DNA of 64,000 nt from Escherichia virus TH22: the sequence record MT446396.1, one strand, 5' to 3'. Made by a program: the position numbers and the translations under genes. A model generated the notes under the pieces. The model searched no databases. It was not told the origin of the DNA and was given only the letters and a program-made list of their open reading frames with translations. This document shows, one piece after another, positions 9,747 through 21,129 of this stretch; the first letter of the stretch is position 1, and each line of letters starts with the position of its first letter.

Positions 9747-10106
9747 ATGGTAAGAGTCATAACTTTAGCCATAGGGTTAGTATTCAGCACGGGAGGAATA
9801 GCTTCAGTACAGAGCGATGACAATAATAGCATCATAGAATATGCAACGAGGACGGCCAAAGATTATTGCGCATCAAGCAATGTGGATTGTGTAATCCGGT
9901 TCAGTGCCAAGCTCACCGCGGCATATAAAGACGGTCAAAATGATGTTGAACACACTCTTATGAAAAAGAGCACTTTATCCAACAAATATGAAAAGAAACT
10001 ATTTGAAATGGATTGTATTCTGTCGAGTGCCAAATATAAAGCGGCCTGCACCAGTATGGTTGACAGGTTAGTCGATTCCTATAACAGAGGATTGAACTCT
10101 AAATGA
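9747..10106 (+). CDS. hypothetical secreted protein
   Basis: N-terminal signal-like segment MVRVITLAIGLVFSTGGIASV. Confidence 0.45.
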   Translation: MVRVITLAIGLVFSTGGIASVQSDDNNSIIEYATRTAKDYCASSNVDCVIRFSAKLTAAYKDGQNDVEHTLMKKSTLSNKYEKKLFEMDCILSSAKYKAACTSMVDRLVDSYNRGLNSK

Positions 10107-10567
10107 TTGTTAACTATATTAAGGGCGATATTGTCGCCCTTTTTCTCGAAGGAAACATCATAGCTCATGGCTGTAACTGCTTCCATACAATGGGTTCAGG
10201 CGTTGCTGGCCAACTGGCAAAGGCTTACCCAAAAATTTTAGAAATGGATAAGACAACAACTGAATACGGTTCCCGAGAAAAACTCGGTGATATGTCTATT
10301 GTTTTTAAACATAAGCCAACTGGATTTGGTATGTGCTATAACCTTTATACCCAGTATGAACCGGGTCCAAATCTGGATTATGGCGCTTTAGTAAATTGTA
10401 TGATAGAATTAAATCTACAAGCAGAAACCCTTTTGTTTAAACCGGTAATTTATATTCCCAGGATTGGCTGTGGTATTGCAGGTGGTGATTGGGATAAGGT
10501 TTCCCGGTTAATTGATATGTTTACTCCTGATATTGATTTGATAGTGGTGGATTATGAGTCAAACTAG
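10103..10567 (+). CDS. macro-domain protein (putative ADP-ribose binding/hydrolase)
   Basis: GDI...NIIAHGCNCFHTMGSGVAGQL and IPRIGCGIAGG follow the macro-domain motif pattern. Confidence 0.6.
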   Translation: MIVNYIKGDIVALFLEGNIIAHGCNCFHTMGSGVAGQLAKAYPKILEMDKTTTEYGSREKLGDMSIVFKHKPTGFGMCYNLYTQYEPGPNLDYGALVNCMIELNLQAETLLFKPVIYIPRIGCGIAGGDWDKVSRLIDMFTPDIDLIVVDYESN

Positions 10568-10951: not shown

Positions 10952-11524
10952 ATGGCGAGTTTAATTTATCATTACGCGGCAATGAATGCAGGCAAAACAG
11001 CTTCATTGCTGACTGCAGCTTATTCCTATAAAGAGCGTGGAATGAGTGTGCTTTTGCTAAAACCTGTTATTGATAATCGGGACTCGGAATCTGAAATTAA
11101 ATCACGTATTGGTATTAGCCAGGAAGCAAACCTGGTAACGGCCGACATGAACCTGTTTGAATTCTATAAATGGGCCGAGTCTCAAAAGGATATCCATTGT
11201 GTCCTGGTCGATGAAGCTCAATTTTTGTTACCAGAGCAAATTGACCAGTTAGCACGAGTGGTTGATAATTATAATATCCCCGTTATGTGTTACGGGCTAA
11301 GAACAGATTTTCGGGGTCAGTTATTTCCCGGTTCGGCCAGACTTCTGGCTATTTCGGATAAACTGGTTGAATTAAAGGGCGTCTGCCATTGCGGCCGGAA
11401 AGCAACCATGACCGCTCGAGTAATCGACGGTGCTGCTGTAAAGGTCGGCGAGCAAGTATTGGTCGGTGGGAATGAATCGTACGTATCTTTATGCAGGAAA
11501 CATTGGCTCGAATTGACAAGCTGA
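10952..11524 (+). CDS. tk: thymidine kinase
   Basis: MASLIYHYAAMNAGKTASLL P-loop and C-terminal zinc motif CHCGRKATMTAR match T4 Tk. Confidence 0.95.
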   Translation: MASLIYHYAAMNAGKTASLLTAAYSYKERGMSVLLLKPVIDNRDSESEIKSRIGISQEANLVTADMNLFEFYKWAESQKDIHCVLVDEAQFLLPEQIDQLARVVDNYNIPVMCYGLRTDFRGQLFPGSARLLAISDKLVELKGVCHCGRKATMTARVIDGAAVKVGEQVLVGGNESYVSLCRKHWLELTS

Positions 11525-13092: not shown

Positions 13093-13275
13093 ATGTTAAC
13101 TACTGAACAAATTGAAAAAATTATTAAACTCGCCTGGCATATTGAAAATGCATCTAATGACCTGGCAGTGGAATTATGTGAAGGCTATTCATATTCTGGA
13201 ATAGAACAGTGTAAGCGTGATTTGAATAGTTCTAAAGCTAATTTGGTTGAATATCTGAATGGGTTGAAAGCATAA
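13093..13275 (+). CDS. hypothetical protein
   Basis: Compact operon ORF. Confidence 0.4.
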   Translation: MLTTEQIEKIIKLAWHIENASNDLAVELCEGYSYSGIEQCKRDLNSSKANLVEYLNGLKA

Positions 13276-13532
13276 TGGCTGTTGGATTTGCAAAAGATGG
13301 CGCTGAACAGTTAGAGATGGAAGCGGTTGTACAAGCCGCTATCACCCATGCGAGAGCACAGGTTGCAGTTGAAAGGGAGTCTGCTGAATTCTGTTTTGAC
13401 TGCGACGAAAAAATTCCTGAAGCGCGGAGACAAGCGATTAAGGGTGTGATATATTGTGTTGGTTGTCAATCAATGCATGATGAAATTTTTAAACGTGAGC
13501 CACGTAACTGTTGGCATAGGAGCATGAGATGA
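13275..13532 (+). CDS. TraR/DksA-like C4 zinc-finger protein
   Basis: C-x2-C-x17-C-x2-C (CFDCDEK...YCVGCQ). Confidence 0.5.
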   Translation: MAVGFAKDGAEQLEMEAVVQAAITHARAQVAVERESAEFCFDCDEKIPEARRQAIKGVIYCVGCQSMHDEIFKREPRNCWHRSMR

Positions 13533-13851: not shown

Positions 13852-14406
13852 ATGATTATTGAAAAATCTGGGTTGTTTGGTGACCTGACTGCCGATGTAA
13901 TTGATAATGCAATCGTGCTTAAACAAGAAGATGATACAGTCGTTTTGACCATTCAAGATATTCAGAACCTGTACAAGTTGTCTGTTATTGATGCAGAGCA
14001 GTATATTCGAACTCATAATCGTGTCTTTAAAATTAACGATGAAGTTGTGGCTTGGTTGTATCGAGGTGAAAATGGCTTTAATCTGGAAACCGAATGGGCT
14101 TGTTTATCCATTAAAAACCGTTCAGAATTTTTAGAGAAAATTTTTAAACTGTTCCAAGAAGAGTGTGTACCTGAGCTCGAATGGAAAATCCATGGTTGTG
14201 ATGCTATTATGCATTCAAGCGAAACCTTTGAAGGTGATGAAGAAGGTGATTATAATACTGAATTCAGTGTCCACCAACATCAAGGTCGCGATATGTTATC
14301 TATCATCCAGACCCACGATGGTGAAGCTGAAGTAGTATTCACTAAAGACGAATTAAAAGTTCTGGTAAAATACCTGAACACTGTTATCCCAACTATGAAC
14401 GCATAA
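13852..14406 (+). CDS. hypothetical acidic protein
   Basis: 184 aa, rich in D/E. Confidence 0.45.
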   Translation: MIIEKSGLFGDLTADVIDNAIVLKQEDDTVVLTIQDIQNLYKLSVIDAEQYIRTHNRVFKINDEVVAWLYRGENGFNLETEWACLSIKNRSEFLEKIFKLFQEECVPELEWKIHGCDAIMHSSETFEGDEEGDYNTEFSVHQHQGRDMLSIIQTHDGEAEVVFTKDELKVLVKYLNTVIPTMNA

Positions 14407-14415
14407 GGAATTACA

Positions 14416-14868
14416 ATGATTATTAATGAAAACGCCTGGCACGTTAAATTACACGACCGTTTTTATGGCCATTATTCTCGCCCACACTCTTTGTGTGCTT
14501 ACTTCTGGAAAATTGTATGGGTCTGCTTTATTTGTTCTGTGCTTGCAGGTAGTACAATCTTCGCCTTAACTGTTGCAGGTGCTGGTGTATTGGAGCAGTT
14601 CTTTGTATTAAGTACTCCTGTTGGTTTAGGGTTAGGGTTTATTTTAGGACTAGCTACAATGGCTCTTATTTTGGCGGTAGCATTTGGTTTAATATATGGT
14701 CTAATGAATTTATGGGCCTGGTATGATTTACGTAAAGAAGAAAAAGAATGGGAACGAATTAAAGCCAAACGCGAAGGAAAGGAAATTAAAGAAAACGTTT
14801 TCATTCAATATATCAAAGCTCGTAAATCTAAGATGTGTCCGGTAATCCATTTTGAGGCGAAGAAATGA
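14416..14868 (+). CDS. hypothetical membrane protein
   Basis: Several hydrophobic helices (VWVCFICSVLAGSTIFALTVAG; GLGLGFILGLATMALILAVAFGLIYGL). Confidence 0.45.
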   Translation: MIINENAWHVKLHDRFYGHYSRPHSLCAYFWKIVWVCFICSVLAGSTIFALTVAGAGVLEQFFVLSTPVGLGLGFILGLATMALILAVAFGLIYGLMNLWAWYDLRKEEKEWERIKAKREGKEIKENVFIQYIKARKSKMCPVIHFEAKK

Positions 14869-15875
14869 GAACAGTTATGAAGGGATATTTTGGGTCCCAT
14901 CTTTATGGAACAAGTACTCCGGAATCTGATGTCGATTTTAAGGAAATCTTTGTTCCACATCCACGTGATATTCTGTTAGGTACGGCAATGAATCATACAA
15001 ACTTGAACACGAATAACACGGCATCCAAAAACACTAAAGACGATGTTGACCACGAGCTTTATAGCCTGAAATATTTCTTTAAACTGGCGGCTGAAGGTGA
15101 AACTGTTGCTCTGGACATGATTCACACTCCGGCTAACCTGGTAGTCAAATCCGATTTACCAGATGTATGGAAGTTTATCCAAGACAACCGTTCACGGTTC
15201 TATACGACCAACATGAAAGCATATTTGGGGTACGTCCGTAAGCAAGCTTCAAAATATGGTGTTAAAGGTTCTAGACTGGCTGCTTTACGTGGTGTACTGG
15301 CAATTGTTAACCAGATTCCTGAACAGTGGGTTGACTACCAAGAAGATGGTTCGACTAAACAACGTCGCACTAAAGTTGAAGATATTAAGCATCGTCTCCC
15401 AGAGAATGAATTCTGTGAATGGGTATTCCATAACCATGAGAAAACCGGTCCTCAAACGTTTTATACTGTTCTCGGTCGCAAATACCAAACTACTTTGTCA
15501 TTAATCGAGCTTAAGCAATCTCTGAATAAACTTGATGCCGAATATGGTGAACGCGCTCGTAAGGCCGAAGCTAACGAAGGTATTGACTGGAAAGCTCTGA
15601 GCCACGCTTATCGTGCTGGATATCAGTTGAAGGAAATTTATATGACCGGTGACCTTCAATATCCTTTACGAACAGCCCCATTTATCCTTGAAATCAAACA
15701 AGGGCTACATGCTTTTAAAGATGTACAAGCTGAACTTGAAGCAATCGTCGATGAAGTCGAAACCAATGCCATCTGGGCGGCCAAGAACGGCATGCCCGAT
15801 AAGGTAGACATGAAGTTCTGGGACAAGTTTGTTGAAGAGGTATATCTTGACAACCACAATTCCTATTATCGTTAA
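14865..15875 (+). CDS. nucleotidyltransferase-fold protein (Pol-beta superfamily-like)
   Basis: N-terminal GSHLYGTSTPESDVDF fits the GS-x(9-13)-DhDh NTase motif; ATGA overlap with upstream gene. Confidence 0.55.
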   Translation: MRTVMKGYFGSHLYGTSTPESDVDFKEIFVPHPRDILLGTAMNHTNLNTNNTASKNTKDDVDHELYSLKYFFKLAAEGETVALDMIHTPANLVVKSDLPDVWKFIQDNRSRFYTTNMKAYLGYVRKQASKYGVKGSRLAALRGVLAIVNQIPEQWVDYQEDGSTKQRRTKVEDIKHRLPENEFCEWVFHNHEKTGPQTFYTVLGRKYQTTLSLIELKQSLNKLDAEYGERARKAEANEGIDWKALSHAYRAGYQLKEIYMTGDLQYPLRTAPFILEIKQGLHAFKDVQAELEAIVDEVETNAIWAAKNGMPDKVDMKFWDKFVEEVYLDNHNSYYR

Positions 15876-15884
15876 TGAAGAAAT

Positions 15885-16071
15885 GAAGGTCTTCTTATCA
15901 TATGGAAGACCCAATAAAGGTCGGCGCTGGTATCTCGAAGCAGTCTGTCGGAAAACTGGCAGACGAATCAACATTAAGTACACGTGTAAACCAACTTCCA
16001 AACAAACCAGGCGTTTTGTTAACTGGGCTATCAATATTATAAGATTCCATAATTTTTGGAGTGCAATCTAA
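15885..16071 (+). CDS. hypothetical small basic protein
   Basis: Short ORF ending just before terminator at 16071; weak SD. Confidence 0.3.
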
Positions 16072-16096
16072 GGACCCTTCGGGGTCCTTTTTTATT
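16071..16096 (+). terminator. rho-independent terminator (UUCG tetraloop)
   Basis: AGGACCC-TTCG-GGGTCCT then TTTTTATTTT. Confidence 0.7.
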
Positions 16097-16106
16097 TTAA
16101 AAAGTA

Positions 16107-16174
16107 GTGTACAACAAGATGGTCATGAGGCATAATGATTCCATACTGAGTTACCAAATAAACTGGAGAATAAA
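16107..16174 (+). promoter_or_regulatory. early promoter plus CATACTGAGTTACCAAA leader
   Basis: GTGTACAA -35, CATAAT -10. Confidence 0.5.
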
Positions 16175-16381
16175 ATGTTAGAATTAATCAAAGCTGCTGG
16201 TGAAAAAGGTCTGATGGTTAACACTCGTGACCCTGAACAACGTCAAGCATTTGGTGAGTTAAAAGCCAAAGGTCTGGTTAAAGCATCCCTTGGTATTGGT
16301 AATGCTTTGCGTGTGACTTTGACCCCTGCAGGTAAAGCAATGTTCTTCCCTAAACCATTACCAAAACGTCGTCGCAAGTGA
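16175..16381 (+). CDS. hypothetical protein
   Basis: Terminator then early promoter with CATACTGAGTTACCAAA leader upstream. Confidence 0.45.
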   Translation: MLELIKAAGEKGLMVNTRDPEQRQAFGELKAKGLVKASLGIGNALRVTLTPAGKAMFFPKPLPKRRRK

Positions 16382-16387
16382 GGAATT

Positions 16388-16690
16388 ATGAAAAAGTATG
16401 AAATTGACATGATTGATGCATGTCTGAAATCTGCTGACCATTTTAAATTGAAAATGCACAAGTTAAGAGGAATGGTCAAAACTCCAGAAGAGAAGAAACG
16501 TTATGCTCTGAAGGAGAAATGTAAAGCTCTTATCATGATGGATAAGCTGCAAATGGTCGCCGCAGAAGCTCACAGGACAAGAAAAGCAGAGGCTCTTGGT
16601 GTTTATATGGCTGAACAGATTCATCGCGCACAGCAAGCCGTTAAGAGCGCCTGGTTCAGTGGTGAAAATACTGAAAGAACTTTTAATTAA
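16388..16690 (+). CDS. hypothetical protein
   Basis: SD GAGGAATT upstream. Confidence 0.45.
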   Translation: MKKYEIDMIDACLKSADHFKLKMHKLRGMVKTPEEKKRYALKEKCKALIMMDKLQMVAAEAHRTRKAEALGVYMAEQIHRAQQAVKSAWFSGENTERTFN

Positions 16691-16692
16691 AT

Positions 16693-16760
16693 GTGTACAC
16701 AAGTATGGGAGCGTGGCATAATGTTCCTATACTGAGTTACCAAACAAACGGGAGAATAAA
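16693..16760 (+). promoter_or_regulatory. early promoter plus CATACTGAGTTACCAAA-type leader
   Basis: GTGTACAC -35, CATAAT -10, leader TATACTGAGTTACCAAA. Confidence 0.5.
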
Positions 16761-17285: not shown

Positions 17286-17348
17286 ACGCTTTATACCAAG
17301 GATGGTATAATGGTTCTGACCTTTGATTAATCTATTGAGGAAATTATT

Positions 17349-18197
17349 ATGTCACAAGCAATTAATGAAATTCGTTCTGAAGTTAAAAAAGTTGTTAAAT
17401 TTAACAGTATTCCAAGCACTAAAGATGTGGTTTTAAATGTTCTATATATGATGTGGAATAAGTTCAATGTTTGTACTAATTCTGCTGAATTCACTAAAAT
17501 CTTTAATAAAACAACGGGCTTGCTTACATTAGAAGACCGAGTCATGAAATCTCTTCAACGTTCAGGTATGTTGTCTCGTGCTAATGTCAAAATTTTACTT
17601 AAAAATTATAATAAAGGTTATGACCTTTATGGTCGTGCGATTAGCACCATGACATTTGATGAAGTGGTCAAAGACCTTCATACTAACCAACGACGTTTAT
17701 TAGCTCTTGGTGCTCGTTTAGCAAGCGGTCAAGATAAACAAATGACCTTTAAAACCAATAATTCTTTAGATTATAAACTATTTAATGTTATTAAAGGTCA
17801 AAATGAAGGCGAATACAGTATTTCTTCTTTTAGCGGATGTCAATACGAAAACTGGAAATTCCACCTCCGTTTGGCTTTGTCTGAACTCGAACATCATGGG
17901 GTTCTTACCTTCTATGATGTTAAAACTGGAGGTGTCCAGCGCATTAAACTATGTCAAATTAAAGACCGAGTTGTAGTTGAGAGTCCTTCAGAGCAAGCTC
18001 CTAAAATGGAACCTGTTCCAGTGCGAAGCAATGAAAAATATTCAGAGCAAATTGAGCTTTTCACTAAACAGATTGAAGAACTTAACATCACTATCCAGCA
18101 GCAAGATGATGAAATTTTCCGTCTGTCAGGACTGAACAATGCAGCGAAAGCCGAACGTCAGAAACTGATGAACGTTATTGAATTGCTTAAGGATTAA
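17349..18197 (+). CDS. hypothetical protein with C-terminal coiled coil
   Basis: Extended -10 promoter (AAGGATGGTATAAT) upstream; heptad-like C-terminus. Confidence 0.5.
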   Translation: MSQAINEIRSEVKKVVKFNSIPSTKDVVLNVLYMMWNKFNVCTNSAEFTKIFNKTTGLLTLEDRVMKSLQRSGMLSRANVKILLKNYNKGYDLYGRAISTMTFDEVVKDLHTNQRRLLALGARLASGQDKQMTFKTNNSLDYKLFNVIKGQNEGEYSISSFSGCQYENWKFHLRLALSELEHHGVLTFYDVKTGGVQRIKLCQIKDRVVVESPSEQAPKMEPVPVRSNEKYSEQIELFTKQIEELNITIQQQDDEIFRLSGLNNAAKAERQKLMNVIELLKD

Positions 18198-18198
18198 T

Positions 18199-18414
18199 AT
18201 GACCATTTTGATTATCAGTATTATTTTTGGTTATCTTTTGACGGGATTTATTACTACCCTGTTGCTCCACAAGTTTGATAGTCCCTACGAAAGTGGGGAC
18301 GAGTATGATGCGGTGTTCACAACATTTTGCTGGCCTATATTCTGGGTAGTCGCTGTTATAATGTGTGTGGCCTGGCCTTTTGCTAAACTCTATAAAAAAT
18401 TATTTGGATTATGA
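18199..18414 (+). CDS. hypothetical membrane protein
   Basis: TM segments ILIISIIFGYLLTGFITTLLL and WPIFWVVAVIMCVAWPF. Confidence 0.4.
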   Translation: MTILIISIIFGYLLTGFITTLLLHKFDSPYESGDEYDAVFTTFCWPIFWVVAVIMCVAWPFAKLYKKLFGL

Positions 18415-18415
18415 T

Positions 18416-19297
18416 ATGAACATTAAAACACGTAAAGAATATTCTCGATTTGAACAGCGTGAAGGTCGTGCAACCCGTCTTATCGCGATGAATTCTCTGG
18501 TTAACTTTGGTAAAATCAAATCAGGTTCTGCCACCCAGGGGTATGGGCAACGTATTGTAAGAATTAACTCTCTGAATGATTACTGCCGCCGCCCTGCGTT
18601 TTTGTTTGGTGCCACAGTTCGTAAGAGCATTAAGGAAATCCTGGCTGGCGGGCTTCGTATTCGCAAGGCTCCGGTTAACATCAAGAACTATAATTTTAAC
18701 TCTGACAACTTGATTATCAATATCAAGAATGATGGTATACAGATTAAGTTCAAACCAACCACCAAGGGCGACGTTGCTCTTTGTGATACCTTTAAAGAGG
18801 TTATGGGTATCGCGCTGTTTTATATGCGCCATGCTGTTGAAGCATACACGTTTGAAGAAGATACAAATTATATCCACCAAACGGAAAAATTCCTTAAAAC
18901 TATAGTCATTGATATTAAATTAACTAAAGAATATCTTTTGTCTTATGCACCTTATCAAGAGAAAAAGGAACCAGAAATGGCAGAACATATCCCTACTGCG
19001 ACATATAACCCAGCAGTTACAGGTCAGTTTAAATCTTACGACCAGGCTAAAATTTCACCACTGGAAGTTAAAAATATGTATCAATGGAAAATCCAGCCAA
19101 ACAGCTCTCTTGAAATCTTTAACCCACCAATGAAGCCTATTGAGAGCTATCATGCTGATGCTATCCAGGAATCAGTCAACCGCTTAAACGGTCTGATTGA
19201 AGATGAGAAAAAGGGTATTCAGGATGTTCTGAATCGCATCAAGAATATGGAAACACAACGCAATAAATTGCAGGCGGCGATTTTAGCATTAAAATAA
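18416..19297 (+). CDS. hypothetical protein with C-terminal coiled coil
   Basis: ATG overlapping upstream stop; C-terminal heptad-like segment. Confidence 0.5.
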   Translation: MNIKTRKEYSRFEQREGRATRLIAMNSLVNFGKIKSGSATQGYGQRIVRINSLNDYCRRPAFLFGATVRKSIKEILAGGLRIRKAPVNIKNYNFNSDNLIINIKNDGIQIKFKPTTKGDVALCDTFKEVMGIALFYMRHAVEAYTFEEDTNYIHQTEKFLKTIVIDIKLTKEYLLSYAPYQEKKEPEMAEHIPTATYNPAVTGQFKSYDQAKISPLEVKNMYQWKIQPNSSLEIFNPPMKPIESYHADAIQESVNRLNGLIEDEKKGIQDVLNRIKNMETQRNKLQAAILALK

Positions 19298-20865: not shown

Positions 20866-21129
20866 ATGTTTAAAGTATATGGTTATGATTCATCTATTCA
20901 TCGCTGTGTATTCTGCGATAATGCAAAACGTTTTTTGGATGTTAAAAAACAACCTTACGAGTTCATCAACGTTATGCCAGAAAAAGGTGTGTTTGATGAT
21001 GAGAAGATTGCCCAACTCCTGGCTGCACTTGGTCGCGAATCTCAAATTGGTTTGACCATGCCGCAAGTATTTGCTCCTGACGGAAGTCATATTGGCGGCT
21101 TTGACCAACTGCGAGAATATTTTAAATGA
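20866..21129 (+). CDS. nrdC: thioredoxin/glutaredoxin NrdC
   Basis: 87 aa; MFKVYGYDSSIHRCVFCDNAKR...GLTMPQVFAPDGSHIGGFDQLREYFK closely matches T4 NrdC. Confidence 0.9.
   Translation: MFKVYGYDSSIHRCVFCDNAKRFLDVKKQPYEFINVMPEKGVFDDEKIAQLLAALGRESQIGLTMPQVFAPDGSHIGGFDQLREYFK

Follow-up and report, generated by a model that had tools for sequence, protein, structure and literature searches.

NrdC.11 of Escherichia virus TH22, a long-form RlaP-family nucleotidyltransferase and candidate RNA 3'-end repair enzyme

The nrdC.11 gene of Escherichia virus TH22 encodes a Pol-beta-type nucleotidyltransferase (NTase) of the RlaP family, which carries an insertion of about 100 amino acids between the two domains of the canonical enzyme. 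Overall, the protein is best explained as an RlaP-type RNA 3'-end repair enzyme cooperating with Pnk and Rnl1, a reading that we consider somewhat better than an even bet. The analysis covered a stretch of 64,000 nucleotides (sequence record MT446396.1, hereafter the window) and establishes for NrdC.11 the open reading frame, the family, the conservation of the catalytic residues, the fold, the domain homology and the insertion. That the protein belongs to the RlaP family is already on record in the literature, which explicitly assigns T4 NrdC.11 to it.

The nrdC.11 gene, its surroundings and its orthologues

The first-pass annotation had placed the NTase-fold protein within the tk-nrdC region, and this was borne out. 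The frame lies on the plus strand, is ATG-initiated, encodes 336 amino acids and has exactly the coordinates given before, and the placement follows from the positions of tk (10952-11524, PF00265 with 193 bits) and nrdC (20866-21129, glutaredoxin fold) together with the synteny to phage JS10. The JS10-like gene order runs from tk over rI and mobD.1 to nrdC.11 and then continues with nrdC.8, nrdC and gene 49. The elements around the gene are as follows:

14416-14868, plus strand: ORF for a predicted membrane protein of 150 amino acids, upstream of nrdC.11
14854..14857, plus strand: GAGG, a Shine-Dalgarno-like element read from the sequence, 7 nt upstream of the nrdC.11 ATG
14865..15875, plus strand: nrdC.11 coding sequence, ATG start, 336 amino acids plus stop; RlaP-family Pol-beta nucleotidyltransferase
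15883-16071, plus strand: ORF for a very basic protein of 62 amino acids, first base 8 nt past the nrdC.11 stop
16070-16089: strong terminator-like hairpin with an 8-bp stem, five GC pairs and a T-run after it, which closes the 62-amino-acid ORF

The upstream ORF ends with a TGA at 14866-14868 that overlaps the ATG of nrdC.11 within an ATGA (14865-14868), and this stop/start overlap, which is also seen in JS10 and VR7, suggests translational coupling of both genes. All Pfam matches of the 150-amino-acid protein (Oleosin, holin) are below threshold. Scans around nrdC.11 revealed no excess of promoters (15 found versus 13.1 expected from shuffled sequences) or of terminators (3 found versus 3.2 expected). 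The small basic protein behind the gene matches Pfam DUF7279 with 32.5 bits (cut-off 24.5), and its counterpart in VR7 is annotated as VR7ORF100c.

Accessory genes further upstream encode the macro-domain protein Tk.4 (10103-10567; PF01661, 33.5 bits) and an 85-amino-acid zinc-finger protein of the DksA/TraR type (13275-13532; PF01258, 36.3 bits). The region downstream of nrdC.11 is a local indel hotspot. A nrdC.10 gene of 981 bp follows nrdC.11 in JS10 (L001, 13012-14820), only small ORFs (68 amino acids; 100 amino acids, DUF7203/NrdC.9) precede nrdC.8 in TH22 (15876-16760) and VR7, and a mobD homing endonuclease gene is inserted near nrdC.11 in VR26. T4 NrdC.11 (PHROG 388; PHA02603) also has 336 amino acids and an equivalent tk-nrdC position and is materially the same gene, but its neighbours differ, as the TH22 window contains neither nrdC.10 nor mobD.

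The closest phages by megablast are the T4-like VR26, VR25, VR7 and TH15 with 95-96% identity over 3 kb, and GenBank proteins that are 98-100% identical exist from VR7, VR25 and TH15, the TH15 orthologue being 100% identical across residues 1-335. The identity to the TH22 protein amounts to 97% for JS10 NrdC.11, 83% for the T-even orthologues of RB27 and T2 and 85% over the N-terminal 135 residues for T4 itself. A tblastn search revealed homologues in 1,547 phage records, and in 1,443 of these the match is nearly full-length. PHROG 388 ('nucleotidyltransferase') covers the whole protein with an E-value of 2.7e-132. The exhaustive HMMER search yielded 3,054 clusters (50% identity) at E<=1e-3 and 787 at E<=1e-30; of the 150 best clusters, almost all have 300-350 amino acids and are matched over the full length. 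These matches go far beyond chance. NrdC.11 is under strong purifying selection, judging from the sequence identity of 83% to the T-even orthologues versus about 52% for Rnl1. In the same phages, Rnl1 is about 52% identical to the T4-type protein, compared with about 83% for NrdC.11 and about 87-88% for Pnk (L012 for VR7, 17316-18452 and 14014-14922). The existing RefSeq label of the protein is 'nucleotidyltransferase'. Among the orthologues in GenBank and UniRef, many are labelled 'thioredoxin', one 'HNH homing endonuclease' and one 'ArsR family regulator'. These labels are annotation errors, and the first was likely propagated from the gene label nrdC.11.

RlaP membership, catalytic residues and the insertion

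The Pfam family PF10127 (RlaP, 'RNA repair pathway DNA polymerase beta family') matches amino acids 8-134 of the TH22 protein with 41.9 bits at a gathering score of 23, whereby only positions 25-142 of the 249 profile positions are covered. All ten diverse subfamily members tested pass the gathering score as well, and all match only at profile positions of about 19-150 of 249, because the insertion of about 100 amino acids interrupts the domain architecture. Short phage RlaPs cover PF10127 from end to end, for instance gp95 of Gordonia phage Syleon (247 amino acids, 97 bits, positions 25-244) and gp145 of Bacillus phage JBP901 (253 amino acids). A comparison of Syleon gp95 with the profile of alignment A1, which consists of 126 sequences with 24-93% identity to the query, spanned both domains (hhalign, prob 99.15, E 3.9e-19) and aligned query residues 8-131 to Syleon 4 to about 127 and query residues 239-329 to Syleon 145-234.

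The first-pass annotation had left the placement among CCA-adding, MNT-type and CD-NTase-like enzymes for comparison, and the sequence profiles point to RlaP instead. NTP_transf_2 (Pfam) reached 13.8 bits (cut-off 21) and the NCBIfam model MntA for NTases of MNT-type toxin-antitoxin systems 13.2 bits (cut-off 60), no family of the PADLOC defence-protein models matched at E<=1, and the PolyA_pol head domain of CCA-adding enzymes was absent from the Pfam matches at E<=1. A separate observation concerns Mycobacterium phage Roots515 (L015, 473-2344), where a 623-amino-acid 'nucleotidyltransferase' contains two PF10127 stretches (168 bits) and is thus a duplicated or fused RlaP.

The same annotation had read a Pol-beta signature in the N-terminus, namely GS, ten residues and D-V-D. 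This signature is exact, and the residues in question are conserved in A1:

14892..14897, plus strand: G10-S11 of the hG[GS] motif; G in 126/126 and S in 125/126 sequences
14928..14936, plus strand: D22-V23-D24, containing the predicted first two metal-binding carboxylates; D22 in 126/126 and D24 in 125/126 sequences
15048..15050, plus strand: D62, the third catalytic carboxylate, within DDVDHE; 126/126 sequences

It is the conservation in all sequences of A1 that identifies D62 as the third carboxylate, and D62, like the whole triad, is also invariant in the alignment with canonical RlaPs. G15 and S21 are likewise invariant or nearly so in A1, and position 84 carries an acidic residue (D or E) in 124/126 sequences. 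An AlphaFold2 (AF2) model with A1 as input (pLDDT 91.4, pTM 0.77, no segment below 50) contains an NTase core, a helical C-terminal domain and a terminal helix (316-335). D22 and D24 are located at the start of strand 23-30 and D62 on strand 61-67, a placement that in the model corresponds to the expected Pol-beta geometry. Taken together, the match to PF10127, the conserved triad and the NTase core of the predicted fold uphold the Pol-beta reading. Searches of the PDB by sequence, whether started from the protein alone or from the profile of 126 sequences, gave nothing meaningful in a copy without the PfRlaP entry. The fold search against BFVD led to phage and giant-virus NTases that form a continuum from 230 to 345 amino acids, and fold matches include HalB, 3c18, KNTase/ANT(4'), LinB, AAD(9), DrrA and GlnE.

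The protein can be divided into three parts:

14865..15257, plus strand: N-terminal Pol-beta NTase domain plus linker helices, amino acids 1-131
15258..15578, plus strand: subfamily-specific insertion, amino acids ~132-238, absent from Phi1, Syleon gp95 and JBP901 gp145
15579..15872, plus strand: C-terminal RlaP helical domain, amino acids 239-336, by hhalign versus Syleon gp95

The earlier description of an unassigned C-terminal part of about 300 amino acids has to be corrected: about 200 amino acids lie beyond the NTase domain, and they are assignable. Profile comparison shows that the C-terminal third is the RlaP helical domain, and a MAFFT alignment of seven sequences agrees with hhalign on this homology. 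The domain contains the motif D241-W242-K243...H247-A248-x-R250...T261-G262, with K243, H247 and R250 each in 126/126 sequences of A1, and shares G-x-D-x-K...H-A-x-R...Q..E...T-G....P with Syleon gp95.

In the seven-sequence alignment, Syleon gp95, JBP901 gp145 and Phi1 NrdC.11 all lack one identical block (~132-238). The Phi1 or RB49-type NrdC.11 (Krischvirus) is from a T4-like phage, is 43% identical and has the same catalytic and C-domain motifs, but it has only 232 amino acids, and its gene (L022, 2501-3199) lies between vs.6 and regB instead of beside mobD.1; as it is missing exactly this block, it represents a natural short form. [quoted passage not shown] The insertion is present in the Tevenvirinae, in phiM12 and in many marine and bacterial long forms. 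According to the AF2 model it is composed of a beta-rich subdomain (154-208) flanked by a helix at 135-149 and a long helix at 213-236, and its own conserved positions in A1 include G135, R137, Y227, G228 and R230; the 11-residue stretch 154-164 is limited to a minority of A1, with a gap frequency of about 0.8. A search of Pfam with the insertion alone retrieved only a DUF1409 fragment, which was taken as noise because it is sub-threshold.

Situated between the two domains whose predicted cleft holds the active site, the insertion could change the substrate, and we infer that it tunes RNA recognition. It might even be a substrate-selecting module with a task other than general RNA-end repair, either for a tRNA- or sequence-specific restoration of the wobble nucleotide or for a role outside of repair on specific host or phage RNA, but we regard this as rather unlikely. 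If true, wobble-nucleotide restoration would make NrdC.11 the third specialized enzyme in the Pnk/Rnl1 pathway of T4.

Genomic context and links to RNA repair genes

No RNA-repair domain was found by a Pfam scan of the ten neighbouring ORFs (10.1-20.3 kb), and in the whole window the tRNA scan detected no tRNA genes and Rfam gave no match at gathering thresholds. The lineage has the partner enzymes, as seen from pseT and rnlA of VR7, but they are unlinked to nrdC.11 and lie about 85-90 kb away from it in this phage. Hence a linkage to RNA ligase genes is not a feature of the NrdC.11 subfamily in T4-like genomes, where nrdC.11 adjoins neither an RNA ligase gene nor one for RtcB.

Outside of the Tevenvirinae, an RNA ligase gene within 5 kb was present in only two of the nine long-form neighbourhoods inspected. 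In phiM12 the long form is flanked by two RNA ligases at distances of 3.3 and 4.5 kb, and in a first marine set of contigs (L004-L007) the long-form gene follows a PF09414 ligase gene located 0.6 kb upstream. No ligase was present in the inspected stretches of L003 (a partly annotated Erythrobacter phage), L008-L011 (the second marine set), L016 (T4-like), L017 (from a large phage) and L018 (bacterial). In a further bacterial contig (L019, 9471-10993) a gene for an HD-domain phosphohydrolase overlaps the start of the long-form RlaP gene, and this enzyme may be an end-healing partner; another one (L020, 10001-11760) carries a long (327 amino acids) and a short (259 amino acids) RlaP gene as an overlapping tandem. 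The textbook arrangement of the short form is found in Gordonia phage Syleon (L014, 1-8806) in the order pnk, ligase, RlaP and tRNA cluster: this stretch contains a polynucleotide kinase, an RNA ligase, two NAD-salvage genes, the short RlaP and six tRNA genes. The ligase neighbourhood is therefore to be understood as a statistical property of the RlaP family and not as a requirement for each member.

Counting the records per host genus of T4-like phages gave near-identical numbers for the three proteins, which agrees with the repair model:

Escherichia: NrdC.11 608, Rnl1 636, Pnk 632
Klebsiella: NrdC.11 286, Rnl1 287, Pnk 286
Shigella: NrdC.11 83, Rnl1 83, Pnk 83
Aeromonas: NrdC.11 75, Rnl1 77, Pnk 77
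Acinetobacter: NrdC.11 69, Rnl1 69, Pnk 70

As independent evidence this co-occurrence was rejected, because NrdC.11, Rnl1 and Pnk are inherited jointly in the Straboviridae and the signal is confounded by their common descent.

Proposed mechanism and alternative functions

Pnk and Rnl1 of T4 constitute the original example of counter-defence by RNA repair, and anticodon nucleases that excise a nucleotide (RloC) have been proposed to defeat this repair. T4 Rnl1 ligates 3'-OH ends with 5'-phosphate ends, which is also stated in the annotation of rnlA in VR7. The idea that a missing nucleotide is restored is already in print, namely in the work of Burroughs and Aravind (2016) as referred to in PMC12776372, in PMC7824862 and in PMC12776372 itself. 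Iyer et al. (2021) presented RlaP as the repair NTase with the highest prevalence in jumbo phages and with a distribution that mirrors that of RNA ligases, and predicted that it refills nucleotides lost to RloC-type nucleases prior to ligation (PMC7824862). Two RlaPs from Pseudomonas fluorescens and P. aeruginosa have been characterized by Carruthers, Fatma and Huang in a non-peer-reviewed preprint (bioRxiv, December 2025; PMC12776372). These enzymes extend the 3'-OH of RNA by one or two NMPs but modify neither DNA nor protein, show little NTP specificity and accept even dATP, prefer Mn2+ and favour the 3' end at the anticodon-loop break of a nicked-tRNA mimic; in addition, they partially rescued the aminoacylation of a tRNA minus one nucleotide before ligation (PMC12776372). 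In the crystal structure of PfRlaP, the NTase and the helical domain form a cleft and the last helix packs on the NTase domain (PMC12776372). The assayed enzymes belong to cluster 1a of the PF10127 similarity network and their biological role is termed 'proposed' by the authors, while T4 NrdC.11 is found in cluster 5, labelled 'of unknown function' (PMC12776372).

By analogy with the Pseudomonas RlaPs, we infer the activity of NrdC.11, tRNA as its substrate and its cooperation with Pnk and Rnl1. In the proposed mechanism, D22, D24 and D62 would hold two metal ions, probably Mn2+, for the activation of the 3'-OH at the end of a broken RNA, onto which one or two NMPs would be transferred from NTP without a template. 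Pnk (PseT) would act first and convert the 2',3'-cyclic or 3'-phosphate to a 3'-OH, with phosphorylation of the 5' end, NrdC.11 would then replace the nucleotide lost to an RloC-type nucleotide-excising anticodon nuclease, and finally Rnl1 would seal the break. The product of an RlaP suits Rnl1, because this ligase requires a 3'-OH and a 5'-phosphate, the ends that such a product offers, and it is unsuited to RtcB, which needs a 3'-phosphate (PMC12776372). Moreover, T4 survives a deletion from nrdC.11 to mobD.3 (PMC9825161), which makes the gene accessory, as expected for counter-defence. Further points in favour are the presence of pseT and rnlA in the lineage, the strong purifying selection and the linkage to repair genes in relatives (phiM12, L004-L007, Syleon and, by the HD-phosphohydrolase gene, L019). 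Against the repair role speaks that the assayed Pseudomonas enzymes are, by proxy, only roughly 25% identical, and given the little NTP specificity the restoration of the correct nucleotide would be inefficient. The insertion next to the predicted cleft, the distance of nrdC.11 from pseT and rnlA, the ligase-free neighbourhoods of most long forms and the viability of the T4 deletion count against it as well. Considered separately, RlaP-type nucleotide addition is, by analogy, the probable activity of NrdC.11, and the specific role in tRNA restoration between Pnk and Rnl1 may apply with a chance that falls slightly short of even.

The same chemistry could serve other ends. NrdC.11 might repair or complete the 3' acceptor end (CCA) of phage or host tRNAs, for example after the action of toxins that target this end, and it is true that RlaP labels full-length tRNA and the 3'-OH of single-stranded RNA in vitro with any NTP (PMC12776372) and that some RlaP genes, like that of Syleon, adjoin phage tRNA clusters. 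However, PfRlaP favours the 3' end at the anticodon break over the acceptor end when given both (PMC12776372), the absent NTP specificity is poorly suited to the synthesis of C-C-A, the CCA-adding family is unmatched in Pfam and the window is devoid of tRNA genes, so that we consider this function unlikely. An offensive use in host takeover, in which 3' ends of host tRNA, mRNA or rRNA are tailed or blocked as by NTase toxins of the MenT type, appears still less probable. It would require identical chemistry, the untemplated addition of NMPs to 3' ends, and would fit the position of nrdC.11 among non-essential accessory genes of the early region and the unlinked repair genes in T4-like phages; on the other hand, the similarity to toxin NTases is insignificant (MntA 13 bits versus 60, none in PADLOC), long-form homologues are found in bacteria as solitary chromosomal genes that lack an antitoxin-like partner, and toxicity has not been reported.

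Even more remote is a role like that of CD-NTases or HalB, in which NrdC.11 would make a nucleotide or oligonucleotide as a signal or decoy against a signalling defence of the host. The likeness to HalB is restricted to a generic NTase core of 129 residues with 12% identity, no PADLOC defence family is matched and the profile evidence assigns the whole protein including the C-domain to RlaP. The lowest probability of all, marginally below the preceding one, is given to the nucleotidylylation of small molecules (as by aminoglycoside or lincosamide NTases) or of proteins (AMPylation, DrrA/GlnE-like), although in the fold matches KNTase/ANT(4'), LinB, AAD(9), DrrA and GlnE, too, a helical C-domain comes after the NTase domain. 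HalB, 3c18, KNTase/ANT(4') and LinB share no sequence family with NrdC.11 and are only 9-13% identical over about 110-175 aligned residues, and the substrates of HalB and the antibiotic NTases (dATP oligomerisation, antibiotics) are unlike the RNA ends used by RlaP. At the family level, none of these four alternatives receives positive support.

No new concept arises from the TH22 window, as identical proteins are annotated, the family is named and a representative is characterized, and the benefit of NrdC.11 for the phage is a question already posed in the literature. What is added here is the numerical confirmation of the triad with D62, the identification of the C-terminal third as RlaP helical domain, the delimitation of an insertion of about 100 amino acids that sets the long NrdC.11 apart from canonical RlaPs and from Phi1, and the absence of RNA-ligase linkage as a feature of the NrdC.11 subfamily in T4-like genomes. 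If NrdC.11 indeed restores a missing nucleotide, it would be the third component of the T4 repair pathway, and one more step in the arms race between phages and nucleases would be documented.
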